Positions 2,256 to 60,900 of a DNA stretch of 62,118 nt are shown here, in pieces (position 1 is the stretch's first letter; each line of letters starts with the position of its first letter). The notes beneath the pieces were generated by a model, which was not told the DNA's origin, did not search any database, and saw only the letters and a program-made list of their open reading frames with translations. The translations under genes were made by a program, and so were the position numbers. Origin of the DNA: an uncultured Candidatus Saccharibacteria bacterium (GTDB taxonomy: Bacteria > Patescibacteriota > Minisyncoccia > Phycocordibacterales > Zambryskibacteraceae); NCBI GenBank assembly GCA_964516975.1, contig CAZFAS010000003.1, forward strand, positions 4,508 to 66,625, written 5' to 3'.

Positions 2256-4715
2256 CTATAAACAGATAACGGAAGCAAGCGAATCCCCTTCACGAAGTTT
2301 CATGATACGAACACCCTGTGTTTGTCTTCCCAGTTCTGGAATTTCTTCAATTGATGTCCTGATAACTTGACCTTTTTTAGAGATTGCAACAATTTCCTCT
2401 TCTTCTGGAGACACAACAGCGGATGCAATAATATCACCAGTTTTTGAAGTTACATTTCCTGTCTTGATACCAGACCCACCACGATTCTGAACTTTATATT
2501 CTTCAATATCTGTCTTCTTGCCATAACCATTCTGTGAGACCACAAGAAGCATCGGCTTTTCCGCAGACTTTTTCACAACTTGAGCACCTATCACTCTGTC
2601 TGATTTTCCAAGCTTGATAACTCTTACACCTGCAGCATTTCTACCCATTTCACGCACATCAGAACTCTTAAATCGAATCGACTGACCTTTTGCAGTTACT
2701 ACCGATACACTGTCCCCATTATCAATCAGTGATGCTGATACAAGAAGATCATCATCCGTTAGCTTAATGGCAATAATGCCACTTGTTCGTACATCACGGA
2801 AACTCGCAGCAGAAACTTTCTTTCCCACACCGTTGCGAGTCACCATAACAAGAGAAAGATCATCTTTTTCTTTCGAATCCTTTGCCACGGGTAGAATAGA
2901 AGTTATTTTCTCTTCACTACCGAGAGAAATGTAATTCATAATAGACTTTCCTCTTGTAGCACGTTTTCCCTCTGGAATATCATACATTTTTATCTGATAG
3001 ACCTTTCCTTTATCAGTAAAGAATAGTAAATCACTATGTGTAGAAGCGGTGAGGAAATGGGTAACAAAATCCTCTTCTTTTGTATTCAAATCGACAACAC
3101 CCACACCTCCACGTTTTTGTTTTTTATATTCATCAGGATTAGTGCGCTTGATATACCCTCCAGCAGTTAACACTAGTGCATTCTCATCATCAGGGATAAG
3201 ATCTTCGACAGAGAAAATCTTTGCACCATGTTTAACCACTTTAGTTCTTCGCTCATCACCATACTTTTCTTGAATATCTGAAAGTTCCTTCTTAATAATA
3301 TTAAGAATTTTCTTTGGTGATGAAAGAATCCCTTTAAGTTCTTCAATAAGAGCTTGTACCGACTTAAGTTCATCTTCGATTTTCTTACGCTCAAGACCTG
3401 CGAGCTTTTGCAAGCGCATTTCAAGAATCGCTGTTGCTTGTAAATCTGAGAACTTAAATTCTTTTCGAAGTGCTGCATGAGCATCTTCAACAGATTTTGA
3501 TGCACGAATAAGCTTGATGATCTGATCAATATGATCGAGAGCCTTCTTTAAACCAAGCAAGATATGCTCACGTGCTTCAGCCTGTGCCAAATCAAAAACT
3601 GTTCTTCGTCTGATAACTTCTTTACGATGAGCTACGAATTCTTCAAGTACTCCCTTAAGTGACAGTGTCTGTGGTACTCCATTTACAAGCGCAACGAGAT
3701 TATAATGGAACATTTCCTCAAGCTGAGTGTGCTTGTAGAGCGAGTTCAAAATCTTTTGTGGTTGACTACCAGTCTTAAGATCAATAACCACGCGGATATC
3801 CTTTGCAGATTCATCACGAAGACCCTTGATACCTTCTATCTTCTTATCACGAACAAGCTCTGCAATCTTTTCAATAAGTGTTGCCTTGTTAACACGGTAT
3901 GGAATTTCAGTAATCACAATCTGGAATGCGCCAAGTTTTGTTTCAACAATCTCAGCCACTCCTCGTGTTACAACACCGCCTCGGCCTGTTGCATACGCAT
4001 GCGCGATATCTTTTTGATTAAAGACGAGTCCCCCGCCTGGGAAATCCGGACCTTTTACGAATTGGAGTAAGTCTTCGGTTGTCGCTTCAGGATTGTCGAT
4101 AATATATGCAGTTGCATCACATACTTCATTCAAATTGTGTGGAGGAATATTTGTTGCCATTCCCACAGCGATACCTAAGGTGCCATTTAGCATCAAGTTT
4201 GGAGCTGAAGCAGGAAGGACTACGGGCTCTTTCTTTGTTCCATCGTAGTTTGGTCTAAAATCTACTGTTTGCTTTTCAATATCACGAAGGAGTTCACTTG
4301 AAATACGTGACATTTTTGCTTCCGTGTAACGGTATGCGGCTGCAGAGTCTCCGTCGATAGAACCGAAGTTACCTTGTCCGAGAATAAGTGGATACCTGAT
4401 AGAAAAATCCTGCGCCATCTTCACGAGAGCATCATACACAGACGCATCACCATGTGGGTGATAACTTCCGAGCACATCTCCCACTACTGTTGCGGATTTA
4501 CGGAACTTTGCGGAAGCGGTAAGCCCCTTTTGGTTCATAGTAAAAAGAATTCTTCTGTGCACAGGCTTCAAACCATCACGCACATCAGGAAGCGCACGAT
4601 CAGTAATAACTGACATGGCATAGTCAATGAATGACTCTTTCATCTCAGTCACAATATTGCGTGAAACAACATTAACTCGCTCCACACTCTGTTCTTTTTT
4701 ATCTTCTTTTTTCAA
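2256..4715 (-). CDS. gyrA: DNA gyrase subunit A
   Basis: 819 aa. [25 protein letters not shown] and YHPHGD motifs, with C-terminal beta-pinwheel repeats. The first codon is TTG (4713-4715), and no in-frame ATG lies upstream of the conserved N-terminus. Confidence 0.95.
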
Positions 4716-5127: not shown

Positions 5128-5772
5128 TTATGAACTCGTCGCTGATAATACTACGATATCACCTTCTTTACCCTCTAAATCTTTTTTCTTAACAGTAAGT
5201 TTATCTACCGGTTTTACTGACTCTTCCCCACCCTCCTTGAGAAATGTCTTTAACGCATTTTTATTCAGTTCATCACCATAATGAATCGGGATAATGATCT
5301 TTGGCTCAAGCTTCACTGCCATTTTATAAGCTTCAGCAGGATCAAGGACGCCATTTCCACCAATTGGTACAAATAGGATATCAACATCATCGAGAGCTTC
5401 CTTTGTATCACTATCTATGGAATCAACTTGCCCAAGCGCTCCAAGAAAACAGAGATTCATATTCTCAAGATTCATAAGATATATCGTATTGAGGCGCTCC
5501 TGCCCATCATAATTTGATTTGGATAGAAATCCTCGAATAAACACTCCACCAATTTCATATTCACCCGGACCGATGACTGCAAACGGCTCTCTGTCACCAC
5601 GAGATGCATTCTCAATGCCATTGAAATCCTTATGTAAACAAGAAACGAGAACAATATCTGCTCCAAACTTTGAACTTTTAAATGAAGAATCCTTTGAAAT
5701 AGGATTATACGCCACGATCGTGTCACCAAACTGAATTTTAAGCGATTCAATGCCCTGATACGAGATAATCAT
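5128..5772 (-). CDS. MBL-fold (metallo-beta-lactamase superfamily) protein with degenerate metal-binding motif
   Basis: Layout resembles UPF0173/UlaG-type MBL-fold hydrolases (KIQFGDTIVAYNP ... IIIPIHYG). The HxHxDH position reads LVSCLHKDFNG. ATG at 5772 is preferred over the TTG at 5778. Confidence 0.5.
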   Translation of the reverse strand: MIISYQGIESLKIQFGDTIVAYNPISKDSSFKSSKFGADIVLVSCLHKDFNGIENASRGDREPFAVIGPGEYEIGGVFIRGFLSKSNYDGQERLNTIYLMNLENMNLCFLGALGQVDSIDSDTKEALDDVDILFVPIGGNGVLDPAEAYKMAVKLEPKIIIPIHYGDELNKNALKTFLKEGGEESVKPVDKLTVKKKDLEGKEGDIVVLSATSS

Positions 5773-5915
5773 GCACAAAATTATTACATAGTTTTGTTTT
5801 TTTATCTATGCAGGGATTTTCACCATTCACACCACAGGATACTTTTTTATCTGTGTCAATATATGGCTTAAAATATAGATATTTTGAGTATATGAAAACT
5901 AAATTTATATTTTGC

Positions 5916-5943
5916 TTGACAATTTATACATACATGCTATAAT
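5916..5943 (+). promoter_or_regulatory. sigma70-type promoter of the GC-rich RNA
   Basis: TTGACA (5916-5921), 16-nt spacer, TATAAT (5938-5943). Predicted start is near 5950. Confidence 0.55.
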
Positions 5944-5949
5944 GGTTCC

Positions 5950-6665
5950 AGAACATTTCGTTAGCTTCGGCTAACATGTACCTATACAAGATGATGTCCC
6001 ATTCGGACCGCCATCCGGATGGATTGTGACCGCACTGATGCGGTCACATAGCTAGGGCGCTAAAACGCCCGCCCATGTCGCCACCGCTAGGAGGTAGCAG
6101 CCGTTTCCGTAGGTACCAGTTTCCCTGCTCAAACACAGAGACTCGGATCACCGGAGGCCAGCTCGAAAACTGGCACCACACGCATCGGCGAGAAACCCAA
6201 AAACGGCACCGCACAGGAGGCGGTACAGACGAGCTGAGCACCCAGACAAGGATCCACACCAGCCTAAAGATTAAGAGTGTGGAAACTTCTGGGCTAGCGC
6301 AAACGCAGACTCAACAAACCAGCCAGTAGTGCCTATTGCAGACAGAGGTCGGCGAACAACACGTGCTCGTGTACGGGTCGCCGCCACTCTACTCTGACGG
6401 AACTGGCTGAAGAGGTGTGAGTATACCACCTACAAACTTTTTTAAAGAGAAGTAGTGCTCCCCGCGACGGATGTCTCCGTCGCGGGGAAGCCTCCGCCCA
6501 AAGTGGGCGCTCGTTGGTCTCGACGTCATCGCCAAGCGCTCGACCTCGAGGGTCGAGCAGATTATCATCGGATCGCCGTGCACAGCGCATAGCGATCCCC
6601 AACCACTGGAGCAATCCAGTGCCAGGACGAAAGTCCGCCCCCGAAGCTTCGCTTCGGGGGTTTTT
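5950..6665 (+). ncRNA. large (~0.72 kb) GC-rich structured RNA of unknown family
   Basis: Bounded by a consensus promoter and an intrinsic terminator. GC is about 52-60% on sampled lines, in an AT-rich genome. No frame is open for more than 93 codons. There are many stable hairpins, including cUUCGg and GAAA tetraloops, and a nested multi-helix domain at 6320-6409. Confidence 0.6.
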
Positions 6666-6668
6666 CTT
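6638..6668 (+). terminator. intrinsic terminator
   Basis: CCCCCGAAGC-TTC-GCTTCGGGGG (10-bp GC-rich stem) followed by TTTTTCTTT. Confidence 0.8.
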
Positions 6669-6802
6669 TACAAAACACGAAAAATACCATAGAATCCCAC
6701 TGTCCTTGCATTACGCAAGGTATTTATTTATCACCCATTGAGATAGCCTCTTGGCGGAGAATTCAGTAATAGCTAGCCAAGAAACTCACTGTGTATATAC
6801 AT

Positions 6803-7942
6803 ATGTTTGGAATAGGAAAAAAAGATACAAAGCACGAGGAGGAAAATGAAGTTGAGGTTGAAAAACCTGTGAAAAAAGATGGGCCAATGGTTGAGCTTTT
6901 AAATAAAAGCCAAACTCCCCCATCAGTAGATGATTTGATTGAAGGAACGGTTATCGGTATCGACAAAGCAGCGGTATACGTTGATTTACCACCATTTGGT
7001 ACTGGTATTATCTATGGAAGAGAATTTATCCAGGCACGAGATATTATTCGAAAGATTAATATCGGTGATTCTGTTGCAGGAAAAGTTGTCGCAATCGACA
7101 ATGCAGAGGGATATATTGAAATCTCTCTTAAGGAAGCTCGTCAAGCGATTATCTGGAGTGAAGCAGAAGATGCTATCCGAGATAAGAAGATCTTTGAGCT
7201 TCCAGTTACTGAAGCAAATAAGGGAGGTCTTATCATCGCATGGCAAGGAATCCAAGGATTCCTCCCAGCATCTCAGCTCAAACCTGAGCACTACCCTCGC
7301 GTAGGAGATGGCGACAAAGATAAAATCCTCGAAGAACTCCGCAAACTCGTTGGACAGAAGATTTCTGTCTCTATCATCGGAGCAATTCCAAAAGAAGGAA
7401 AACTTATCTTCTCAGAAAAGAATCCGGAAAATAAAGACAAAGGGGAAATTATCGATCATTACACACTTGGAGACGAGGTAACTGGAGAAGTTACCGGCAT
7501 CGTAGACTTCGGTATCTTCGTAAAACTTGAAGAGGGACTTGAAGGACTTGTTCACATCTCAGAAATCGACTGGGCGCTCGTAGAAAACCCACGAGCACTC
7601 TATAAAGTCGGTGAAAAAGTGAAAGTTAAAATCATCGATATTAAGGATGGAAAAGTCTCACTTTCAATCAAGGCACTCAAAGAGAATCCTTGGATTGAGG
7701 CAAGTAAGAAATACAAGAAAGATAGTCTGGTGAAAGGAGTTATCATCAAATTCAATAAGCACGGCGCACTTGCTTCTATCGAAGAAGGAGTGGCAGGCCT
7801 TGTTCACATCTCAGAATTTGGAAGTGAAGAGAAACTTCGAGAAAAACTTGAACTCGGAAAGACATATGACTTCAAGATCACCCTCTTCGATGCAAAAGAA
7901 CAGAAGATGGCACTCTCATTTGTAGATGGGACAAAGAAATAA
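6803..7942 (+). CDS. rpsA: 30S ribosomal protein S1
   Basis: Repeated S1/OB-fold modules (GTVIGIDKAAVYVDL, VAGKVVAIDNAEGYIEISL, VTGEVTGIVDFGIFVKL, VKGVIIKFNKHGALASI). The ORF-track start at 6791 is GTG, so the ATG at 6803 is preferred. Confidence 0.9.
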   Translation: MFGIGKKDTKHEEENEVEVEKPVKKDGPMVELLNKSQTPPSVDDLIEGTVIGIDKAAVYVDLPPFGTGIIYGREFIQARDIIRKINIGDSVAGKVVAIDNAEGYIEISLKEARQAIIWSEAEDAIRDKKIFELPVTEANKGGLIIAWQGIQGFLPASQLKPEHYPRVGDGDKDKILEELRKLVGQKISVSIIGAIPKEGKLIFSEKNPENKDKGEIIDHYTLGDEVTGEVTGIVDFGIFVKLEEGLEGLVHISEIDWALVENPRALYKVGEKVKVKIIDIKDGKVSLSIKALKENPWIEASKKYKKDSLVKGVIIKFNKHGALASIEEGVAGLVHISEFGSEEKLREKLELGKTYDFKITLFDAKEQKMALSFVDGTKK

Positions 7943-7982: not shown

Positions 7983-8046
7983 TTGCATGGAAAAAACTAA
8001 ATAGTAAAATGAACATAGATTTGTAATCCCACCTCAAGGAGGTCGT

Positions 8047-8493
8047 GTGAGCGAACAACTTTTCCGAGAAACAACAGACAATGATCGCCGAGTTGACGCA
8101 TTACTCATGGTTTTCATTCGTGTACTCTATGAAAATAAATACACCTCTGTTTCAAAGGAAGATTTAAGGCGAGTGCTGCCATTCTATATCTTCTTCATTC
8201 GATACATTAGTGGAGCTTCATTCGAAATTCCCCAAATGTATGAAAAAGAAGAATCAATTCAGGGAACACTGTCTGAAGGTGCAGTCAGTGGAATTTTCCA
8301 CACTCGTGGTCCAAGAAATGACGGACGATATCACTTTAACAATGGTCAAATCGCACGTCACTTGACCAAACTCTTTGTTGAAAGCATTCTAACAAATGAG
8401 GAATTGGAAATCGCGGTCAAAGCAGCGAAATCATGCGTATCAGCGTATGGAAGAAAACTTAAATGGGGAGATACTGATCCGTTTAAGCTCTAG
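8047..8493 (+). CDS. hypothetical protein
   Basis: 148-aa ORF with a GTG start, preceded by AAGGAGG (8036-8042). No recognisable domain. Confidence 0.5.
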   Translation: MSEQLFRETTDNDRRVDALLMVFIRVLYENKYTSVSKEDLRRVLPFYIFFIRYISGASFEIPQMYEKEESIQGTLSEGAVSGIFHTRGPRNDGRYHFNNGQIARHLTKLFVESILTNEELEIAVKAAKSCVSAYGRKLKWGDTDPFKL

Positions 8494-24400: not shown

Positions 24401-24406
24401 ATATTG

Positions 24407-24479
24407 TGGGCGGTAGAGGATTCGAACCTCTGACATCAACAACGTCAATGTTGCGCTCTACCAACTGAGCTAACCGCCC
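24407..24479 (-). tRNA. tRNA-Val (anticodon GAC)
   Basis: Reverse complement is GGGCGGTTAGCTCAGTTGGTAGAGCGCAACATTGACGTTGTTGATGTCAGAGGTTCGAATCCTCTACCGCCCA. It folds as a canonical cloverleaf with anticodon loop TTGACGT. CCA is not encoded. Confidence 0.92.
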
Positions 24480-24557
24480 GAATGAATTGCTTATACCTAC
24501 CAAAACAGCTAACCGCCCGAATGAATTGCTTATACCTACCAAAACAGCTAACCGCCC
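24480..24557 (-). repeat. 2 x 39-bp tandem repeat, each unit carrying a copy of the tRNA-Val 5' end
   Basis: Units 24480-24518 and 24519-24557 are identical. On the minus strand each begins GGGCGGTTAGCT (the first 12 nt of the tRNA). Similarity continues through nt 22 (19/22). Confidence 0.9.
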
Positions 24558-36221: not shown

Positions 36222-36297
36222 TGGTGCCGAGGACCAGGTTCGAACTGGTGACCCTTCGCTCTTCAGGCGAATGCTCTACCAACTGAGCTACCTCGGC
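36222..36297 (-). tRNA. tRNA-Phe (anticodon GAA), CCA encoded
   Basis: Reverse complement is GCCGAGGTAGCTCAGTTGGTAGAGCATTCGCCTGAAGAGCGAAGGGTCACCAGTTCGAACCTGGTCCTCGGCACCA. Confidence 0.93.
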
Positions 36298-36468
36298 ATG
36301 TTAAATCAAAATATAACTGTATCAGATGTTATCAACCAAGACAGCAATCTCGACATATTAATCAGAATATTACTGTATCAGATGTTACCTGCCAAAACAG
36401 CTATCTCAACATACAAAACACAATATTGCTGTATCAGATGTTATCAGCCAAGACAGCTACCTTGGCAT
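36298..36468 (-). repeat. three tandem 56-59-nt repeats, each containing a degenerate copy of the tRNA-Phe 5' end
   Basis: Units are 36298-36356, 36357-36412 and 36413-36468. The conserved core on the minus strand is AACATCTGATACAG(C/T)(A/T)ATATT. Each unit starts (minus strand) with a GCCAAGGTAGCTGTCTTGG-like sequence; the real tRNA starts GCCGAGGTAGCTCAGTTGG. Confidence 0.85.
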
Positions 36469-44938: not shown

Positions 44939-45160
44939 ATATGAATGTATAAAAAACTATTAATAAAAACTTTGTATCTCATAATGATATAGGAATATGA
45001 AACCCATATCAAATCAGGAGTGTTAATTATTATATCCTTATTTTAAGCCATATTATAGACTATTCATAACTACATGAAACGGCAATTTTTTATTAAAAAA
45101 TTCGAAATAGGTAAAAATTAAATTGTTTGATTTTTTCTTATTTTATGATATTATTTGTTA

Positions 45161-45510
45161 GTTGTATCAGGTGATCGCTATTTCAAAAATGAAATAGAGG
45201 AAAGTCCGAACACGTGTATATATAATATACAGGACAGTAGCAGGTAATACCTGCCCGGAGTAATCCGCGCGATGCGAACAGTGACGCTTCCAATCGAAAG
45301 AACGGAGGCTCCAAGATTCTCTTGGATGATTCACATAGTAATATGTGGAGTGCAACGGCTAAATTCGTACTTACGTGCAAGACCGTACTCATATAGAAAT
45401 ATATGTTTGTGTCGCTTGAGGTGTATTGTGAAATACATCCCAGATAAATGATCATCGCATACCCCTATTTTTAATAGGTGTATGTACAGAATTCGGCTTA
45501 TCGATACAGC
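45161..45510 (+). ncRNA. rnpB: RNase P RNA
   Basis: P1 pairing 45161-45168 with 45503-45510. P3 hairpin CTATTTC-AAAAA-TGAAATAG. P4 strand GAGGAAAGTCCGAACAC and the 3' conserved ACAGAATTCGGCTTA. Confidence 0.85.
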
Positions 45511-45520
45511 ATAAAATAAT

Positions 45521-48915: not shown

Positions 48916-51900
48916 TTAAGGTGTCGCTGGTAAGGTTGTATCAATATTCACCGCTGTCTGACCAGAAGTGTCGACTGGTGTAGGCACTGGTGTTGTACTC
49001 GTATCAGTTGTTTGTGGGGCTGGACTAGTTGTTGTATCTGGAACTTGTGTTACGGTTGTCGGATCGTTAGTTACGGGAGTTGAACTTGCTGTTGAATCTG
49101 GTGGTGTTGTCGTATCTGGAGGAACAACTGGTTGAGTTGAAGTGCTTACTGGTGGCACTGGGTTCACTTGCTGAGGGTTAGTTGTTGTTGCAGTTGAGGT
49201 CGACTGAATTGTACTTAATGGCTGATAATTCGACGTAAGTGAAATTTTACCATCCTTTATTGCAAGTGCAATCCAACTAAATGTGATGTCCTCTTTTGCA
49301 GGATTATTAAGAAGGATTGTAAATCCATGTGTACTCTTTTGAGTTACCAAATACCTAACATCTGCATCAAATATCGCCTGCTCAAGCACCTTAGTATCGG
49401 TCGTTGTAGATGATTCAAGCGCAATAGTTGCAGATACAGTAGGCTGTGAAAGATATTCTCGATCGAAGATAACATCAACACTTCGAGAGCCTTTTTGAAC
49501 AACCGCAGTTCCACCCATATCTGATGTAAAGTATGGACGACCGAAGAATTCAACATCTGAAAGCATTGCAATAGTTGTACTTGCGGTTCCAATTGAATCT
49601 ACACGGAGTCCACCAACAAGTGTTGTTGTTCCATGAACTTCAAGGCCATTTGTTCGAACAGAATTTGAGAGAATATCTCCAGCAAACACAGCATTTCCAG
49701 TTGTATCAAATGTTACAACAACTCCATCATCAAGATTAATTGCAAATGGTGTAGTTGAACCCGTACTTGTTGCAACATTTGTAACTACTATTGGAGTTGT
49801 TGTTCCAACACTTATATCAGTTGATGAACTTGTAGTTCCAAGACCACTGAGTGCGTTAGCTACAAATCCTGCTTTTCTAATTACAAATCCACCAATGATT
49901 GAATCCACTTGGAGTTGACCTGCCTTGATTTCACCTGCGTTTACCTTAAGTCCTTCGATATCCTTTGCGTTCAATAGATTTGTGACTACATTTGGACTGA
50001 TAACTTGTGATACTGCTGAGATCTTATCTGCAAATATATCTGATTTATATGTTGGGCCAGCTTCTCTATCCTTTCGAAGATTTTCGAGGAATGCGAGCGT
50101 CTTTGCTTCCTTTGTTCCTGAGATAATGCCGATTGTTCCTGCATACTGTGAAGTTGTATCAGTCACAAGTCCTGAAGCATTAGGATCAAGATTTATACCT
50201 CTCATATCATTGTATGCAGACATTACATCATCAACTGGTGCTCCCATATAATCAGATAGATTTACAAACATCATAATCGTTCCACACTTTCTGTTTGGAA
50301 GATAGATATCACTTGCAGGACAATCTGTAAGCTTCTGCGGATCAAGTGATTCAAGTGCGTGACCGATGATATGTCCTGCAAGCGTTGCTTTCATTGCATG
50401 ACCTGGAACACTTGCTGCTGTGAGTTTATCACCAACTCGGATCATTCCGTTTTCTGTTGAAACCTTCACTGGCACACGTCCAATGAGTGCAATTGGATAT
50501 GAATTCTCAGTATATGCACCCGCCACGAATCCAGGATCAGTAGAGACAACACCGAGAGCATCTGGCTGATATTGATATCCTGTCTTCTTCACTCCATGAT
50601 TATTTTGTGGATCGATAGATACAACCTCTCCGAAATCAAGTTGCTCTTGTGATGTATATCTTTCTGCAAGGTCGGCACCTGATGTATTGATTGTTCCTCC
50701 CTGTTGAGCATAGATATCACCTGCTGAACTTACTCTAAACATTGAGAGTCCATCAGATTGTAAGTTGAGAAGATCCTTGTCCTTTGTCACCTTGTATTCA
50801 TAAAGAACAGGTGTCAAAACTGGTCGCTGTGGGTAGTTCATCGCTGATCCTCCGTTGTTATTCCATACATCAGTGTATATTCCTCCGTATGATGGGAATG
50901 AGCGTCGGAAATTGAAGATTACTTGCATCCATGCATCACCAGCAGATGGATTGATAAGCCCACCAGAATTTGAAATCTCACGAGCTGTTGTTGTACCTAA
51001 TGCAGCTTGTGTTGGTGCTGTCTTCACCTCAACTGATATTCCACCCTGTGCTACAGAAGCAACATTCGACTTCCATACGAGAGTTGAGTTCTGATCAAGT
51101 TTTGTTCCAGCAGGAGAAAGATCGAACTGTTCTGATCTATAAATACCGCTTGCAACCCATCCTGCATCATAAATCTGTGTAGCGTTTCCAGCATTAGTTG
51201 TGGTTGTCGTTGCTGCGCCCAAGATTACCATAAATTTACCATCTGAGCGCTGGAACGAAATTGCACCTGAGTTACTTGTAGCAGAGTTTGCAAGAACAGG
51301 GCCAGCAGTAAATGCACCTATTGTTTGGCCTTGGAATCCAGCACCGATTGCAGCACCTGCTCGTTCATTGTATATACCCGTTGTTGACTGACCAGCACCG
51401 TTTGCGGCACCTCCTCCATAAATAATGAGCCACGTTCCATCAGGTCGAGGTAGTGCATGCGCACCCATTCCCGCAGCAGAACCCGGTACTGCACCCGCAA
51501 TCATTGTCGCATTACTTACCGGGTTATAAATTTGAGTTGTCGCAGCGCCAATACATCCAACTGCTGAACCTCCCTTCACGATCACCCATAGTCCATCACG
51601 TCTCTGGAAAGCAAATGCGCCCGGACCTGTTCCTGGAGTAATCTGTGCAGGTGATCCAACTGACGTAAAGGTCATTGTGTATGGATCGAAGTTAAGTGTT
51701 GTTGTAATTGCAGTCGCACATGATGAAGCTGCGTATCCTGGGAGGAAGAGGTACGTACCGTCTGGTCGTGGAATCCAAAGTGATCCTCCACCTACTAATA
51801 TTGCAGCTGATGTAGTTGGACCAGGTGCCATAGTGTTATTTACTGGATCATAGATAGAAGAGTTTGCGGTAAATCCACCGTGCATGATAAGTATACGCCC

Positions 51901-54900
51901 ATTTGGAAGTGGGATTGCTGATGCTCCCATACCAGCTCCAGTTGAACCATTAATACTTGCGAGGTTAGGACCAGCGGTAAAGGTATCAAGGACAGGATCA
52001 TAAATGTTTGTTGTAGATGTTCCTGCAGGACCGTTTGATGCACCTGATATTGGTGAGTACCATCCTCCACCCATTACAATGAGGAATTTACCATCTGGGC
52101 GCTTCACCGCAAATCCTCCTGTACCAAGAGCTTGTGTAGGAACGTTTGGAGCAGAAGTATAGAGTGTTGTTGTTCCCGTCTTTTCATCATACGTCATTGA
52201 GTTGAGGGTCGTACTTCCAGAAATAATCTTAAATGTTCCATCAGGTCTCTTCATGACAATGGTGGTAGATGCTGTTCCTACTGGAAGTTGTGGACCAACA
52301 GCAAAAGCACCATTGTACTGTATTGGGTTCGTGCCATTCACCGTTGAACCAAGTGCACTATTTGTCGAAAGTGCGAGAGCATTCTGTCTGTTAGTATCAT
52401 TTGAAATATTTACATATACAGGACCTGAAGCAGAAGCTGTCGTAGATGATACAGAATTTCCAAAATCAAATTGGGTTTTATGAAGTACAGCACCGTTATC
52501 TACCGTCACGTCATACAGCACCGGATCAGCATTTACTCTTCGGTATCGAGTAAGTCCCGACTTTCGGATTCCCCACTCTTGATCGAGGAATCGTGGAAGC
52601 TCTCGTTGGAAGACAAACTTAAATTGAATCCTATTATCTGCAGTACTTGTTGCACCAATCAAACTTCCTGTCTGAGCAATCGGTACGTATGTTGATTGTG
52701 AACAATCTGCCGGACTTGTCGCAGTTCGTGCATATGCATAAATCTTACCTTCTGCATTTGATGTCCAATTTAGAGTTGAGTTAGGGGTAATATTTGTATT
52801 ACTAATACATTCACTTTCATAATATGCGTTCTGAGTATTTCCTTTATCAATACCGGTTACAAAATTCATATCATAGATATCAATAGCAGTTGAAGCGCCT
52901 CCACGAACTACAGCATATCGTCCATCTGGAAGCATGAATACCGTTAATCCATGACCGAGTGTTCCAAATCCAGATGGACCACTAGTAAAGCTTGGTGCAA
53001 TACTACCTGCGCCTGTATCGATAATACTTGTAGTTGAACTTGAAATTAATACATATTTACCATCCTGTCTCCATGTTGCCTGAGCACTATCAGCGAGAGC
53101 GGCAGATGGACCAACGCCGTAGTTTGCACTAAATGCTCCAAATCCATTTGAAGTTGTAGCAACTGGATTATATGAGAATGATTGATTTGCTGCACCAGGA
53201 AGTGTGAGGAAATAACCATCTTGTCTTCTGATTGAGAATGCGCCAGATGTAATTGCGGTAGGTGCAGCAGGACCAACTAATATGAAGTTTGAATAAGGGT
53301 TATAAATCCAAGTATTTGTCGAACCACCTCCTTGGTAAATAAGGAATGTTCCGTCATCACGCTGAAGAGCGTGTGCACCAGCACCCCATGCACCAGTAGG
53401 CCCAACCGCACCTCCTGTTGCTGGAGTACCAGACGCAAATCCAGAGGCAGTTGCAGCTGCTGGATCATAAATTCCCCAGTTTGGAGTTCCTCCAGAGAGA
53501 ATCACATACTTACCATCTGATCTTTGGAAAGCATATGTTCCTGTTGCCGCTGCACTGGTAAGTGATGGACCTGCGGCGACTGTAGTAATGTTAAACGGAT
53601 CAAATACTGACGTGTTTGTAACAGCTCCTCCATGAACAAGAAGATATCTACCGTCAGCACGCCTAATAGCTATAGAACCAGCGCCAACTGAACCAGTTGA
53701 TACTACAGACTGTGTTGACATCGTTCCACTGTTGAATCCATTCCAAAGTGATGCTGTTGCAGACCCACCTCCATGGATAATAAGGTACTTACCGTCAGAG
53801 CGAATAATAACCTGTCCTCCTGAGCTGACATTTGCTGCAGTAACTGTTGAAGTTGCACTCACCGTCCCGATTCCATCATTTACTACACCATCTTGGATAG
53901 TTACATAATTATTTGTTGAGGTTGTCGTAGCGAGTGTTGCTCCTGTTGCTAAGAAGTCAGTTGCTGGTGTTGAGCTACTTGTAGTTTTTACGATATCTGT
54001 TGTTTGAGTATTGATAGTAAGTCCTCCACTGTTTGCTACCACAAATTTATCTACCCCACCTTGCTGAAGTGTAAGTAACCCACCTGCACCACGCTGATCA
54101 ATCACAACAGCAGGAGTAGTTGTGCCTGATGTAGTTGAAGCTGAGAGAACGCCTGCCCAAGGAGTTGTTGTTCCTATACCTAATCGTGAATTCGTCTTGC
54201 TATAAGTAAAGTCTGATGTACCATCAAGAGCATTCGCGGTATTAAATTGAATCGATCCTGCTGAACCAGCAGCTGAAGCAGCACCAGCATTGATCGTACA
54301 ATCTGTAGCAGATGTTCCACCATTATCGGCACACGATACTCCTGTTCCAATAAAGTTAAGTTTTGTTCGGGCTGTAAGGTTTGATCCCTCATCTTGAATA
54401 GTTGCATATCCACCACCAGTTGGTGATGTTGTAGCAATTACAGCGCCTGTAGGACTTACAGCGAGGAATGTTCCTGCAGGAACTCCAAGGCTTGAGATAA
54501 TAAGAGCTGAGGTTGAAGCTGTACCATTTACCGTAAGAAGTGCTCCTGGAGTTTTAGTACCAATACCAACCTGACCAGTACTATCGATAGTCATACGAGT
54601 ATTTGTTGAGGTTGATGTCCCTCCAGTTACAAAGTACAAATTCTTTCCTGAAGATCCGTTCGCAAGATACATGTCATTACCAAGCGCTAAGATATTTGCG
54701 TCCCCTGCTCCACCAATATTGTATGTCTGTGGGTTATAGAAGTTTGAATTATTGATGCCCATCCACATGAAGTTTGTAGTGAGTGTGCCTGTATCCATCG
54801 TCGCTGAGAACCCTGACTGCGCACCAACTCCAGTTGATGTGTTTTGAACATTAATTTCAAAGAAATTATCGATGGAACCTTTTGCATATATAGCTTCAGT

Positions 54901-57900
54901 ATTTCCAGTCGTACCCGCATCAATAGATAATTTTGCATATGGAGAAGTTGAACCAATACCAATATCTCCATCTTGATCAATAGTTAATGCAGTTATAGTA
55001 GAAGTTGCAAAAGTACTTGGTGATGAAGTTGCAAAGTAGAGGTTTCCACCAGCATTTCTCATTGTCCAGATGTTTGATGTAAGTGATGCATCTGAAAGAG
55101 CGAATTGTGGTCGAGTAGATGATGCTACCTCAAGTGCCCATGCTGGAGTACTTGTTCCAATTCCAAGACCTACATTGTTTCCTCCATTAGGGTTAAGTGA
55201 AAGGAATGCAGATGATGAGGTTGCGAACTTATCTGTATTTGTTGTACCACCAGCAGCTGAGTCATCAGTACCACAGATTACACTACCATTTGCATCTGTT
55301 TGAAGGAGTTGATTTGCAGCAGAACAATTAAGTCCTATGATAGCGAGAGATGTTGTTGTTGCCTTTGATGTTGTTGCATTAAGCGCAGTGAAGTTCTGGA
55401 GCGTTGAAGATCCAGTTACAGAAAGATTTGATGTATTAATCTGACCATTTACATCAAGAGTGAATGCCGGAGCTGTTGTATTAATACCAACATTTCCAGA
55501 ATTAAGCACTGCCAATATTGAACTTGAAGCATTCGATACAAAATTTGCAAGTGTTGCATCAGTTGATGTACCCCATACTGTAAATGTTGCTGATGGAGTT
55601 GTTGTACCTACTCCAATACGAGGCGCTCGAATACCCCCAGCACCATCTGACTGTGAGTAAACAGTGAGAAGTGGATTTCCGTCAATCTGAGCAGTATAAC
55701 TTTCTACTGTTCCAAGAGCAGAGGCAGCTGTCACAGGCATATCTACCCATGTAAGAATACCTGCGTCAGTATCAAAGTTTGTAATACCAAGCTGAAGGTT
55801 ATCAATCGAAGTAAGTCCTGTAGACCAGTCATGAAGGATGGCACCACCATTTACATCAAGGCCACCAGCTAATGTTGTAGTTGAAGTTGAAGCATACGCA
55901 AAGAAGTTTTGTGCAGCCACTGTTCCCTGTACTGCAAATCTTGCAAACGGTGATGTGGTTGCAATCCCCACATTTCCATTTGTATCAATAGTGAGAGCAG
56001 AAACTGTTGATGTTGCGTACGTGCTTGGTGATGAAGTTGCAAAGTAGAGGTTTCCACCAGCATTTCTCATTGTCCAGATATCTGATGTAAGTGATGCATC
56101 TGAGAGAGCGAATTGTGGTCGTGTAGATGATGCTACCTCAAGTGCCCATGCAGGAGTAGATGTACCGATACCAAGACCTACATTGTTTCCTCCATTTGGA
56201 TTAAGTGAGAGGAATGCTGAGGTTGATGTTGCCCACATGTTACTACCCGCACCACCTGAATTTTGATCCGCAGAACATGTCACTGCTCCAGATGCTGATA
56301 TAGCTGACACCTTATCTGTTCCCGTACATGTTGTTCCACTTATGAGAGTATAATCCGTTCCATTTGATGCAACACTTACCAAACCGTTTACAGATTTGAG
56401 CATATTACTTCCTGTAGAAAGATAGAGATTAGATGTAGAAGCAAGAGTTGCAAAGAATTTTGTAGATGTAGCATTCGATGATGTTGAGTTGAGTGCTGTG
56501 AAGTTCTGGAGTGTTGTTGAGCCAGTAACAAGCATGTTTCCAGTAGATGAAATAGAGAACATGGTTGTAGTGCCAGAACCATTATTTGCAAAGAGTCCGA
56601 GGAGTGGGAATGTTGCAGAAGTTGATGTTGCATAGATAGAGAGTCTTGCATCTGGAGATGAAGTACCAATTCCAACATTACCAACTGAAGATATTCTCAT
56701 CTTTTCTGTTAGACCAAATGGACTTCGAGTCACAAAACCGATATCACCATAATCATTAGCATGATCTGTGAAGAAGCCGTATACCGCGGATGAGATCGAA
56801 CTGTTTGCATTATCTGCAAAACTAAACTTTGCATAGTTATTGTTTGTTTGATCAGTATTTACCATCTTGAAGAAGCTTGCATCTGATAGTGTCGTTGAGT
56901 TTGCAGACACTCCTTCAATTACAAAAGCGTCAATGTTGTTTGCATTCCCATGATATAACTTTGCCTTAACTGTATTTTCAATAGTCATTGTTCCGAGTCC
57001 GATCTGACCTGTATTTTTATCTACAAAGATTGAAGGTGCTGCATTTGTAGAAGTTGCATTCACTACAAATCGTGCATTCCCTACTGGCGTTGTACTTCCA
57101 ACAGCAAATACTCCAGCAAATGTAGAAGTTGCAGTAGTAGATGTTGCGTTAATAGCAGCTACTACAGGAGTAGATGAAGATACGAGGTTACCGTTGCTAT
57201 CAGTAGTGATAACCATGTTTGCACCAATACCCGATAGATTGAAGTTTGTAGCTCTAAGGTTTGTCGCAAAGAAGTTTGTTGTAGTAGCAGATGTACCTGT
57301 AGCGTTTGCAAAGGTGAAGTTCTGGAGAGTAGTAGAACCAGTAAGGAGAAGGTTAGAAAGGAGTCCTGTTGTTCCAACAAGATTCGTTGCAAAGAAGTTC
57401 GTTGTTGTAGCGTTTGTTGTTGTACTGTTGAGTGCTGTGAAGTTTTGGAGTGTTGTTGAACCTAATGAAAGCAAACCACCATTAAAAGTAGAAGCGGTTG
57501 ATGAGGTTGCTGTAAAATATTGAGCCGCAACTTGACCCTGCACATTGAGCTTCTCATTTGGAGAAACATTTCCAATACCAATATTCTGTGTATTAGCTTG
57601 CATAATCAAGCCTACTGCTCCATTCCAGAAGAACAAATCCCGAGTACCGTTACCATCTGGATCTATTCCTACCTGTCCAAATGGTACGCCATTTGAATTG
57701 AAAGAAACAACTGATTTAAAGGCGTTTGCACTAGTATTATCAAGAGCAATACCAACTAAAGAAGTTGGGCCGATTCCTGGTGACCCGGTAAATGTTGCAC
57801 CATAACCTCCAGATGGATACACTACAGTGAATTTAGTATTAGGTGTACTTGTACCAATCCCCACATTTCCATTTGTATCAATAGTGAGAGCAGAAACTGT

Positions 57901-60900
57901 TGATGTTGCGTACGTGCTTGGTGATGAAGTTGCAAAGTAGAGGTTTCCACCAGCATTTCTCATTGTCCAGATATCTGATGTAAGTGATGCATCTGAGAGA
58001 GCGAATTGTGGTCGTGTAGATGATGCTACCTCAAGTGCCCATGCAGGAGTAGATGTACCGATACCAAGACCTACATTGTTTCCTCCATTTGGATTAAGTG
58101 AGAGGAATGCTGAGGTTGATGTTGCCCACATGTTACTACCCGCACCACCTGAATTTTGATCCGCAGAACATGTCACTGCTCCAGATGCTGATATAGCTGA
58201 CACCTTATCTGTTCCCGTACATGTTGTTCCACTTATGAGAGTATAATCCGTTCCATTTGATGCAACACTTACCAAACCGTTTACAGATTTGAGCATATTA
58301 CTTCCTGTAGAAAGATAGAGATTAGATGTAGAAGCAAGAGTTGCAAAGAAGTTCGTTGTTGTCGCATTAGTTCCTGTTGCATTAAGGAATGTGAAGTTCT
58401 GGAGAGTTGTTGAACCATTTACAGAAAGATTTGATGCATTAATCTGACCATTTACATCAAGAGTGAATGCCGGAGCTGTTGTGTTGATACCTACCTTACC
58501 AGCATTATCAATAATGAAGTTGGTTGCGGTAGATGAACCAACTACAAATGCTGGGCCACTACTTGCCGTAAGCGATGTTGGATTAATTGCAAATCCACCC
58601 CATGGTGATGTAGTACCTACTGCTATTGTTCCTGAATCTAAGATACTAAAGAGTGTTGTTGATGCATTGTTTGCAACTTGGAAGGCTGTTGATGTTGATG
58701 TTGTTCCAAGACCCCATACCCCAAGACGAGCATATGGAGTAGATGTACCTGCACCGATGAATGCGTTTATGAGTTCAATCTTACCGAGTGTTCCTGAGTT
58801 AATGTTTCGAACTCGGATAGCGTCGCTCCATGCATTCGTTACACCAGAGAAGTATGCGAGTTCAACGCCGATATTTTGAGCGCCAGAGCCAACTCCAAGT
58901 CTTAAGCTCTGTGATGTTTTTGATGAAATAGAGAGGTTAGAACCAACACCACCATCCTGAGTTACTTGTAAAGCACCAGCAGCAGTGATTTCAGCAAGTG
59001 TGGTGCCGTTGAAGTTTGACCATACTTGCATAAGATCAGTAGCATTTGTTCTCTGTACTGAGAAGGCTGCAAGTGGTGCAGTTGTACCCACTCCCACTCT
59101 TCCATTTGTTTTATCAACAAAGAGTGAAGGCCTTGCATTTGATGTTGTAGAAACAACGAAATCTGCATTCCCCATAGGAGAAGTTGAACCGATAGAGAAT
59201 ACTCCAGCAAATGTAGAAGTTGCAGTGGTTGATGTTGCTTTAATAGCAGCAACAACAGGAGTAGATGAGGATACGAGGTTGCCATTGCTATCTGTAGTGA
59301 TAACCATGTTTGCACCAATACCTGAGAGATTAAAGTTTGTAGCACTAAGATTTGTAGCAAAGAAGTTTGTAGATGTAGCGTTTGTTGTAGTTGAATTAAG
59401 TGCAGTGAAGTTCTGAAGAGTGGTTGAACCTTGGAAGTATGCATTACCAAGTACTTCAAAGAGTGTTCCGTCTGTTGTTGTAGCATTACCACCAAGAACA
59501 AGAGCGATACTATTACCACCATTTGGTGAGAGTGTAAGACCATTTGATGACGTAGCGAACTTAGAGTTTGCTCCGCTACTTCCTGATCCTGTTCCACACG
59601 CTACTCCTGTATTAGAGAGTACTCCTGTAGATGAGAATGTTGCACATCCTGCTGTACCACCTGCTGAACTTACAATGAGATTTGTTGTTGATGCTGTTGT
59701 AGCAGAGAGAGTTGTTGTAGTTGCATTAGAAGTTGTTGAGTTAAGTGCTGTGAAGTTCCGAAGTGTTGTAGAGCCAGAAACAAACATGTCACCTGAGTTA
59801 CTGATTGAGAATCGTGTTGTTGTAGCAAAGGAAGCGACAGATGAAAGTTGGAAGAGAGGCGCAGTATCATTGTTTGCGCCAGCAACATCAAGACGAGCAA
59901 GTGGTGACGAAGTACCAAGACCAAGCTGGCCCATAGTGTATATATTTCCTGTAGTAGTATCCCATGCTCCATTTTGTGATGCAGTTGTGATTGATGATCC
60001 TCGTGCAACAGTTGATGAGAACATTCTCATTGTTCCACCCGCTACATTAATCACTCCAGAACTTACTTGGAAGAATTTATTTACACCTCCGTTTGTTGCA
60101 ATGTTTAGTACCCCGTCGTTTGCGGTTGCTGCAATGAGATTTACAAGATTATCGAGATCTTGGAGTTTGCCTGCGATTCTTACAATTCCCGTTGCATAGA
60201 GATTAGTTGTAGTTCCATTTGTTGTAGTTGAATTGAGTGCTGTAAAGTTCTGGAGAGTACTTGATCCTGTTACGAGAAGGTTACCAAATGTTCCAAGACC
60301 AGAAGCAGAAAGTGTTGTGCCTGTTGCGGTAGTGAATCCAAAGTTTGTCGCAAAGAAGTTCGTTGTAGTAGCTGATGTACCTGTAGCGTTTGCAAAAGTG
60401 AAGTTTTGGAGAGTGGTTGAGCCAGTAAGGAGAAGGTTAGAAAGGAGTCCTGTAGTACCAACAAGGTTTGTAGCAAAGAAGTTTGTTGTTGTAGCTGATG
60501 TACCGGTAGCGTTTGCAAAGGTGAAGTTCTGAAGAGTTGTAGAACCTTGGAAGTATGCATTACCAAGTACTTCAAAGAGTGTTCCATTTGTAGTTGTAGC
60601 ATTACCACCCAAAACAAGGGCGATACTATTACCACCATTTGGTGAGAGTGTAAGACCGTTTGATGAAGTTGCGAACTTTGAGTTACCTGATGTCATGTAA
60701 TCAGTACCTGCAACTGCTGCTACTACCCCACCTATACTGTTTACCTTAAGGAGTGTTGATGAAAGACCTGTGATTGCAAGTGATGTTGTTGTTGCTGATG
60801 TTCCGGTTGCTCTTGCAAATGTAATATCTTGGAATGATGAGGCAACAGTAGTTGATGTTGCAGTGAAGTATGAAGCGAATACATTGCCATCAAATACTCC

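Follow-up and report, generated by a model that had tools for sequence, protein, structure and literature searches.

We analyzed a 62,118-nucleotide (nt) stretch of DNA, here called the window, from an uncultured bacterium of the Zambryskibacteraceae (GenBank assembly GCA_964516975.1, contig CAZFAS010000003.1), in which a GC-rich unit of ~0.72 kb lies between the genes for an MBL-fold hydrolase and ribosomal protein S1 (rpsA). The unit matches no described RNA family tested and is a lineage-restricted, fast-evolving structured RNA of one Paceibacteria clade. Comparison with its relatives suggests that selection retains the promoter, a 5' module centered on a Shine-Dalgarno (SD) sequence, the local density of GC hairpins and the terminator, and that the sequence of the body turns over quickly. 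The reading we tentatively favor, without giving it the greater part of our confidence, is that positions 5950-6668 of the plus strand form the gene for a stable ~0.72-kb RNA with a ribosome-docking core.

The coordinates of all features are collected in Table 1. The promoter scored 12/12 in a consensus scan and carries the TG of an extended -10 element at 5935-5936 (TGnTATAAT). An exact TTGACA-N16-18-TATAAT occurs once in the window when both strands are searched, with 0.06 expected, and no minus-strand promoter able to cover the unit was found. The -35 and -10 elements are identical in the same-species allele L004, where the AT-rich DNA upstream of the promoter differs. The intrinsic terminator at the other end has its TTC loop replaced by AAA in L004, with the stem intact. 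The GC content reaches 0.56-0.60 over 6000-6700 (200-nt windows), which is the window maximum, compared with 0.30-0.41 in the flanks. The RNase P RNA encoded in the same stretch (45159-45516, class A, 118 bits) has a GC content of ~37%, not above that of the genome. Structural RNAs are thus not generally GC-enriched in this organism, and the 57% GC of the unit stands out all the more.

Several observations speak against a coding function. The longest open reading frame (ORF) in the unit, on either strand, has 93 codons, and the ORFs overlap one another. A 906-amino-acid concatenate of six-frame fragments of at least 40 amino acids found no homologue at E<=1 among 5.8 billion proteins. Frame-breaking indels separate three alleles from the same species. 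The unit fails as a protein-coding gene or pseudogene when judged by a conserved frame, in-frame indels and homologues. A preliminary description, made by a model from the letters alone, had already proposed a near-consensus promoter, an intrinsic terminator, a foreign-looking base composition and an absence of coding potential, and each of these points is borne out by our analysis. From its sequence signals, the unit is very probably a real RNA gene, that is, a self-contained, noncoding, plus-strand transcription unit running from promoter to terminator.

We searched the whole window with Rfam 15 (4227 models, including OLE, GOLLD, ROOL, HEARO, raiA, 6S, SRP, RNase P, tmRNA, and ribosomal-protein and peptide leaders) and recovered only RNase P and six tRNAs at gathering score. 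A permissive scan of 5800-6800 gave a best E of 0.14, with terminator look-alikes lying 60-90 bits below threshold, and the GC-rich islands of 22 related loci yielded no Rfam match. This was a check that the preliminary description had proposed after its own failure to recognize tmRNA, SRP, 6S or RNase P in the unit, and its outcome agrees with that failure. ARAGORN located neither a tRNA nor a tmRNA in the unit; together with the negative Rfam tmRNA models this led us to reject tmRNA. Blastn against phage and plasmid collections and a motif scan of viral contigs returned no match, and the window contains no second copy of the unit, which is not what is expected of a phage- or plasmid-borne mobile element. 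Scanning metagenomes for AGGAGGT-N4-8-GCCKTTTCCGTAG produced only 10 chance matches in high-GC coding DNA, and the source species was not recovered there, so the collection scanned evidently does not include the samples in which it lives. A literature search found no account of such RNAs in bacteria of the candidate phyla radiation (CPR).

The unit folds far more stably than its composition predicts. Its minimum free energy (MFE) is -316 kcal/mol, compared with -236 +/- 9 kcal/mol in dinucleotide shuffles (z = -8.6), and a second set of shuffles gave z = -13; an rpsA coding segment reached -1.9, and a GC-rich coding insert from a related locus (L093, 2093-2572) +0.2. The local helices listed in the preliminary description are all present where it placed them, except that the stem at 6026-6047 has 8 base pairs rather than 9, the ninth being gained only when T6025-A6048 is counted. 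The nested domain it had outlined at 6320-6409 can be read directly in the sequence; the inner helices appear in the span-limited MFE structure, and the closing CAGCCAGT/ACTGGCTG helix requires a wider pair span.

We compared three alleles from the same species, namely that of the window, which nine contigs carry, L004 and L112-114. The S1 proteins encoded next to them match completely or at 99.7% identity, and the RNA regions are 92-95% identical, with indels of 1, 1, 1, 5, 5, 3 and 1 nt. Substitutions are rarer in predicted stems than elsewhere. Between the window allele and L004, only 20 of 47 substitutions affect paired positions, which make up 67% of the MFE structure (p = 6e-4). Across the three alleles and with a span-limited fold, substitutions hit 24 of 448 paired and 34 of 271 unpaired positions (p = 0.001). 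Well-formed local hairpins are invariant, and the differences affect loops, helix ends and two hypervariable linkers. Within 6320-6409 only loops and bulges are touched (6368 T>G, 6377 G>A, 6393 C>G), and in the 3' hairpin series the stems are conserved between alleles while loops and helix ends vary. All pairs that are broken by allele differences belong to long-range or weak MFE helices, and for this reason we do not believe the long-range helices of the MFE structure. One compensatory double change was found: the SD hairpin reads GCTA[GGAGG]TAGC in the window and GCAA[GGAGG]TTGC in L004, a T-A to A-T exchange. The RNA would be dense in stable GC hairpins with A/C-rich linkers between them, and their sequence seems to change fast.

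Relatives of the unit are not found by sequence similarity. Nhmmer with the RNA as query, run on 80 species-level rpsA loci and on the closest relatives, gave no match at E<=10 outside the species, so that the homologue search suggested in the preliminary description ended at the species border, and related units were identified by their site and signals instead. The S1 homologues of the window rpsA belong to Paceibacteria (Zambryskibacteria/Taylorbacteria-like), and our locus comparison covers the best 80 of 351 rpsA loci. The order MBL-fold gene, gap, rpsA, gap, pth is kept in these ~80 species-level genomes, the two gaps spanning ~150 nt to 1.8 kb. In ~16 species-level loci the gap between the MBL-fold gene and rpsA (MBL-rpsA gap) holds a unit with the same promoter and layout (the window, L091, L093, L020, L016, L115, L117, L105/107, L011, L012, L013, L014, L033, L060, L070, L072, L080 and L120). 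The promoter GCTTGACAA...TATGmTATrAT heads the units in L091, L093, L020, L016, L011, L012, L013, L105, L120 and others, and in the first four of these it takes the form GCTTGACAA-N13-TATGmTATAAT, scoring 12/12 with TG. The putative start AGAAC sits 7 nt past the -10 element in the window, L004, L091 and L093. It is followed by a 5' box with the variants CCTATACAAG/TGATGATG across units, of which (T)GATGATG also occurs in L004, L091 and L093. At the 3' end, GCCCC...GGGG(C/T) hairpins terminate the units in L091, L093, L020, L105 and L060, with a GGAC/GTCC hairpin adjoining this terminator in related units, and GTCCGCCCC, which links the last hairpin to the terminator, is common to the window and L091.

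Between these ends, the ~500-nt body cannot be aligned even to L091 and L093, whose S1 proteins are 88% identical. An alignment of five units has 52% mean column identity and shows conservation only at the promoter, the SD core and the terminator, and unit length varies from ~340 to 830 nt. The properties of the body are kept nevertheless: family GC is 0.54-0.59 in genomes of 0.40-0.45, and on the promoter strand A exceeds T in 16/16 units and C exceeds G in 13/16. Folding z-scores range from -6.4 to -13 in 7 of 10 units tested, the window included (-6.4 to -9.6 in L091, L020, L012, L016, L060 and L072), and are weaker in L093 (-3.7) and in the short L105 unit (-1.4). Extreme folding scores go together with high GC in nine of the ten members tested, the L105 unit being the exception, and this is better explained by selection for hairpin stability than by a foreign origin. 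In two of the closer relatives, L094 (S1 91% identical) and L111 (84%), the unit is absent and short promoter-bearing gaps of 208 nt and 235 nt are found in its place.

Homologous units at the same MBL-rpsA site in sister species indicate vertical descent with losses, as in L094 and L111. The unit is accordingly an old inheritance of the clade, kept at one site with repeated losses, the opposite of the recent horizontal import that the preliminary description had considered possible. Another idea is that foreign GC-rich DNA entered an intergenic site prone to insertions and now persists there as a remnant, inert or decaying. Rapid sequence turnover and the absence of the unit in L094 and L111 would fit such a remnant, and the gaps around rpsA do accept GC-rich coding inserts, such as a lipoprotein-like ORF in L093 and islands between rpsA and pth in L029 and L047. 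In an inert remnant, however, one would hardly expect the promoter, SD core and terminator to persist between species with S1 identities of 76-88%, or the hairpin stems to be shielded from substitution within a species. Folding z-scores of -6 to -13 are not matched by the GC-rich coding insert, no frame has a protein homologue, and phage and plasmid collections and viral contigs hold no match. We consider this explanation very unlikely.

The preliminary description placed the unit among large ornate RNAs of the OLE, GOLLD and ROOL kind, which would imply a specific conserved tertiary fold with a ribonucleoprotein or ribozyme-like role and homologues too divergent for the tools used here. The part of this assignment that concerns size, own transcription signals and strong structure stands: the unit has 0.72 kb, GC helices joined by A-rich linkers, UUCG and GAAA tetraloops, the nested multi-helix domain at 6320-6409 and extreme folding z-scores across the family, and it matches no known family. 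The part that would require conserved sequence, a conserved fold and covariation does not. The bodies are unalignable at 88% S1 identity, length varies more than 2-fold, closer relatives differ in presence and absence, and allele differences break the long-range MFE helices. RNAalifold, run on the 5' domains and on the conserved core, found no credible consensus structure, and no conserved partner gene accompanies the unit beyond ordinary synteny. An ornate RNA is thus unlikely in our view. What appears to be conserved around the predicted ribosome-binding core is hairpin density and not a particular fold, which is unusual.

The one internal element that persists is an SD sequence with a mini-ORF, which the preliminary description missed in its otherwise valid list of internal helices (6089-6112). 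The sequence AGGAGGT, a consensus SD located 140 nt past the inferred start, has no start codon 4-12 nt downstream in the window. The same heptamer serves as an SD elsewhere in the window, at 8037-8043 ahead of an ORF starting at 8047. In L004 and L091 the 13-mer GCCGTTTCCGTAG is identical to that of the window, and the mini-ORF there reads ATG CCG TTT CCG TAG (M-P-F-P-stop); the window and L112-114 alleles are without the T that makes the ATG. Variants are ATGCCTTTTCCGTAG in L020 (CCT for CCG), GTGCCTTTTCAGTAG in L093 (GTG...CAG) and GTG ACC CCG TTC ACG TAG in L016. The closest units share the string AGGAGGT-N5-7-ATGCCGTTTCCGTAG, and AGGAGGT followed by GCCGTTTCCGTAG persists among species whose bodies are unalignable. 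RNAalifold shows no common local structure around this core, which therefore seems to be kept as sequence. In most species the mini-ORF has 1-7 codons and mostly a UAG stop. Other SD-linked mini-ORFs encode M-stop (L060), M-A-stop (L105), M-T-stop (L072) and MLRR-stop (L033), L012 has a 21-codon ORF, and a recurrent M-(W/R)-(K/R)-L-x-x-(R/Q)-stop is found in L013, L016 and L115. In L013, CCGCACAGGAG, which it shares with a second SD-like hairpin of the window, is followed by ATG and a 7-codon ORF.

We counted these modules in the fetched loci. GGAGG followed by a mini-ORF of up to 8 codons occurs 33 times in 1.52 Mb on both strands, and 7 times in ~8.4 kb of units, where ~0.2 are expected (~40-fold). 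GGAGG alone is enriched ~2-fold in units (19 versus 9.9 expected; same-strand CCTCC, 14), and our SD claim for this reason rests on the positioned module of SD plus mini-ORF. The loops of the unit also raise the question of a protein-sequestering sponge of the CsrB/RsmZ or CrcZ type. The unit does have many short hairpins, purine-rich loops (ACAGGAG, GGAGG, GGATGT) and CA-rich linkers. Its 15 GGA triplets are nevertheless close to the 11.9 +/- 2.5 expected (z = 1.3), the family as a whole has 160 versus 156, A.GGA occurs 35 times with 39 expected, and k-mer counting shows no repeated binding motif. A CsrA-type sponge was rejected on these motif counts, and a sponge of any of these types is most improbable.

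The enrichment of consensus-SD mini-ORFs could alternatively mean that the RNA is a micro-peptide mRNA or a dual-function RNA. Its M-P-F-P and M-(W/R)-(K/R)-L-x-x-(R/Q) peptides, or ribosome stalling or peptidyl-tRNA drop-off on them, would then be the point, and the body would be a long 3' untranslated region. In favor of this possibility, the Pro and Phe codon changes are synonymous, the second mini-ORF type recurs in three loci, and a Pro-stop ending is one that terminates poorly in Escherichia coli. Weighing on the other side, no start codon accompanies the SD in the alleles of the window, L112-114, L115 and L120, mini-ORF length and sequence vary by subclade (M*, MA*, MT*, MLRR* and the 21-codon ORF), and a 500-nt hairpin array under selection is left unexplained. 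This explanation strikes us as quite unlikely.

The position of the unit invites a further explanation, in which it acts in cis on rpsA. One route would be regulated terminator read-through, with the mini-ORF sensing translation capacity; the other would be an effect on the rpsA promoter through transcriptional interference or supercoiling. The unit lies directly upstream of and codirectional with rpsA in all members, its terminator T-run overlaps the rpsA -35 element (6661-6672), and the arrangement of unit and then rpsA promoter recurs in L091, L093, L016, L020 and L060. An SD with a mini-ORF is the classic sensor of a leader-peptide attenuator, and rpsA itself has no obvious SD. The mini-ORF is, however, more than 520 nt away from the terminator, too distant for classical attenuation; its stop at 6112 lies 525 nt from the terminator start at 6637. 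No antiterminator evidently competes with the strong terminator, alternative pairings with it being absent from our folds of the unit, and the window allele is start-less. On these grounds we set aside a leader-peptide attenuator. In addition, a conserved promoter and leader belong to rpsA itself, and L094 and L111 keep a short promoter-bearing gap without the unit. We regard a cis-acting element as improbable, to the same degree as an ornate RNA.

The stable RNA with a ribosome-docking core that we favor could work as follows. A near-ideal constitutive promoter would drive the unit, and a strong intrinsic terminator would close it. A 30S subunit or ribosome would dock close to the 5' end, at the SD or the mini-ORF, also in start-less alleles such as that of the window. 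Docked subunit, hairpin array and terminator hairpin together would yield a long-lived and abundant RNA, the hairpin body serving as a nuclease-resistant array. Such an RNA may work in trans, engaging ribosomes as a decoy or scaffold, rather than via a conserved catalytic fold. The start-less alleles of the window, L112-114, L115 and L120 retain the SD with no start codon at usable distance, and it is this retention that leads us to liken the element to the SD-type 5' stabilizers of Firmicutes. Taken by itself, the docking mechanism is a possibility that we hold with some doubt.

Several findings weigh against this proposal. Apart from the one pair in the SD hairpin we detected no covariation among the ~16 homologous units, whose bodies are unalignable. 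The predicted accessibility of the SD is not above that of the rest of the RNA (P(unpaired) 0.1-0.36). The window allele has lost the start codon, and mini-ORF translation can accordingly not be essential there. Third-position variation (CCG/CCT, TTT/TTC) hints at selection on the peptide in relatives. Finally, the unit is dispensable, since two of the closer relatives (L094 and L111) are without it.

A more specific variant would make these RNAs a new class of abundant CPR-clade RNAs, whose core AGGAGGU-5-15 nt-CCGUUUCCGUAGG binds free or immature 30S subunits at the 3' end of their 16S rRNA. The last 7 nt of CCGUUUCCGUAGG are what we take to be the 5' strand of 16S rRNA helix 45, going by the E. 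coli sequence. With its nuclease-proof hairpin body, such an RNA would be a trans regulator of ribosome availability, hibernation or maturation. We advance this variant as speculation, with little expectation that it is correct; if true, it would be a regulator for organisms with reduced ribosomes, encoded beside the gene for ribosomal protein S1. A fold of the isolated 5' domain pairs the 5' box (GUACCUAU) with the mini-ORF stop region (GUAGGUAC), but the corresponding duplex energies in relatives are no better than chance expectation except in L016, and this pairing stays hypothetical.

Table 1. Coordinates of the RNA unit, its internal features and its immediate neighbors in the window
Feature	Position	Strand	Remarks
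MBL-fold hydrolase	5128-5778	-	
Sigma-70 promoter, consensus extended -10	5916-5943	+	TTGACA 5916-5921, 16-nt spacer, TATAAT 5938-5943
Inferred transcript start AGAAC and first hairpin GTTAGC-TTCG-GCTAAC	5950-5975	+	hairpin invariant in three alleles
Conserved 5' box GTACCTATACAAGATGATG	5978-5996	+	ACCTATACAAGA common to L080, GTACaTATACAAG common to L033
SD hairpin GCTA[GGAGG]TAGC	6086-6098	+	displays AGGAGGT 6089-6095
Mini-ORF remnant GCCGTTTCCGTAG	6100-6112	+	start codon lost in window allele
Second SD-like hairpin ACCGC[ACAGGAG]GCGGT	6208-6224	+	CCGCACAGGAG also in L013
Nested four-helix domain	6320-6409	+	CAGCCAGT/ACTGGCTG around CAGAG/CTCTG, CGGCGA/TCGCCG, ACACG/CGTGT
Hypervariable A/T-rich linker	6431-6456	+	5-6-nt indels and many substitutions among three alleles
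11-bp hairpin CCCCGCGACGG-ATGTCT-CCGTCGCGGGG	6460-6487	+	stem invariant; loop alone varies (T>C at 6472)
Second hypervariable linker	6510-6530	+	5-nt indel and ~10 substitutions between alleles
3' hairpin series	6538-6636	+	6538-6558, 6570-6598, 6604-6621, GGAC-GAAA-GTCC 6625-6636
Intrinsic terminator	6637-6668	+	stem 6637-6661, 11 pairs, 8 G-C, loop TTC, then TTTTTCTTT
rpsA promoter TTTACA-17-TAGAAT and leader hairpin	6667-6720	+	context, outside RNA unit
rpsA	6803-7942		downstream of RNA unit, codirectional

The genes around the unit are arranged in the order gyrA, a 116-amino-acid ORF, the MBL-fold hydrolase, the GC-rich unit, rpsA, two small ORFs and pth. The rpsA promoter is conserved as T[TAG][TG]ACA-17-TAGAAT in the window (6667-6800) and in L016, L020, L060, L091 and L093. 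A leader hairpin follows, then a TTTTAATTAC-like sequence, with no obvious SD before the rpsA ATG; this region probably serves as a leader for S1 autoregulation. In L093, positions 2093-2572, which lie between the RNA unit and rpsA, hold a 159-amino-acid ORF with a GC content of 0.56, a lipoprotein-type signal peptide and a weak Big_1 match, which is a genuine GC-rich coding insert in the MBL-rpsA gap. The GC-rich islands between rpsA and pth were set aside as members of the same RNA class. In the pair L029 5383-5653 and L047 5209-5482, substitutions are 3-periodic ([17, 20, 41] by phase) with one 3-nt gap, a pattern that identifies these islands as coding. In other Paceibacteria, the MBL-rpsA gap contains a mutually alignable unit of ~250 nt (L065 ~3082-3370, L055 ~3483-3740, L030 ~2654-2990) with its own promoter, the pattern GGTGGCCTAGGAAGAAAACAATAGTGATTGC...GGGGTTGTAGGATC...ACCTGAGTAC and no Rfam match, probably another undescribed small RNA. 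This unit and the gaps of L026, L057, L069 and L071 differ in sequence from the RNA described here and were rejected as members of its class.

Elsewhere in the window, a 39-nt unit is repeated 2.3 times with 100% identity at 24468-24557, beside tRNA-Val (24406-24479, minus strand). Each copy begins with the first 12 nt of the tRNA (GGGCGGTTAGCT), a partial 5' tRNA duplication, and these duplications may be integration scars. A 56-nt tandem repeat (2.8 copies, 83% identity) at 36303-36459 adjoins tRNA-Phe (36222-36297). On the minus strand, 48916-62025 is a single ORF of 4369 amino acids. A giant, internally repetitive protein is indicated by the 25-mer CCAAATGGAGGAAACAATGTAGGTC, which occurs three times in this ORF (55185, 56193 and 58086). 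The cumulative GC skew over 1-62118 falls steadily and turns up near 51 kb; this turn may mark a replication origin or terminus in or next to the giant ORF.

To our knowledge, the noncoding RNAs of CPR/Patescibacteria, whose genomes are tiny, are almost uncharted beyond the universal ones. Here, one clade devotes 0.3-0.8 kb to a hairpin-packed noncoding RNA with what is predicted to be among its strongest promoters. Selection for structure in general, without a particular fold, would be missed by alignment-based discovery of noncoding RNAs. If ribosome binding proves true, the unit makes translation control in uncultivated episymbionts accessible to testing; if it proves false, a well-delimited orphan RNA gene remains that merits entry into RNA family databases.

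We compared the unit to known systems. With OLE, GOLLD and ROOL (RF01071, RF01998 and RF03087) it shares an intergenic, noncoding nature at 0.6-0.8 kb, an own promoter and terminator, and very dense structure. In those RNAs both sequence and fold are preserved across many genera, but our units retain only their ends and a core of ~25 nt; the unit also misses their covariance models and has no phage or tRNA context or dedicated partner genes. CsrB and RsmZ are likewise multi-hairpin untranslated RNAs with a strong promoter and terminator and fast turnover outside their motifs, but GGA-in-loop repeats, their defining feature, are not enriched in the unit. With tmRNA it has in common a structured RNA and an internal, short, start-less frame ending in a stop, yet the unit is without a tRNA-like domain, and its frame is preceded by an SD and has an ATG in relatives.

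Closer parallels exist for the SD module. The STAB-SD of Bacillus thuringiensis cryIIIA, like ribosome stalling in the ermC leader, reportedly stabilizes mRNA at its 5' end and protects the coding mRNA downstream. In the unit, too, a perfect and unused consensus SD near the 5' end serves no real gene, is start-less in some alleles and precedes a long RNA; the SDs in relatives precede ORFs of 1-7 codons. The known cases protect coding mRNA, whereas the body of the unit is itself noncoding, and the analogy needs a host 5'-exonuclease (RNase J). In the phage lambda bar minigenes and in E. coli start-stop sites, ORFs of 1-5 codons hold or recycle ribosomes and release short peptidyl-tRNAs. The strong SD ahead of such a short ORF is common to these and our units, but our units embed the mini-ORF in a structured chromosomal RNA of 0.3-0.8 kb at a fixed locus, the stop is mostly UAG, and the window allele is start-less. 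By analogy, the unit would thus resemble an SD-stabilized or minigene-bearing RNA in its predicted working and the large orphan RNAs in its looks.

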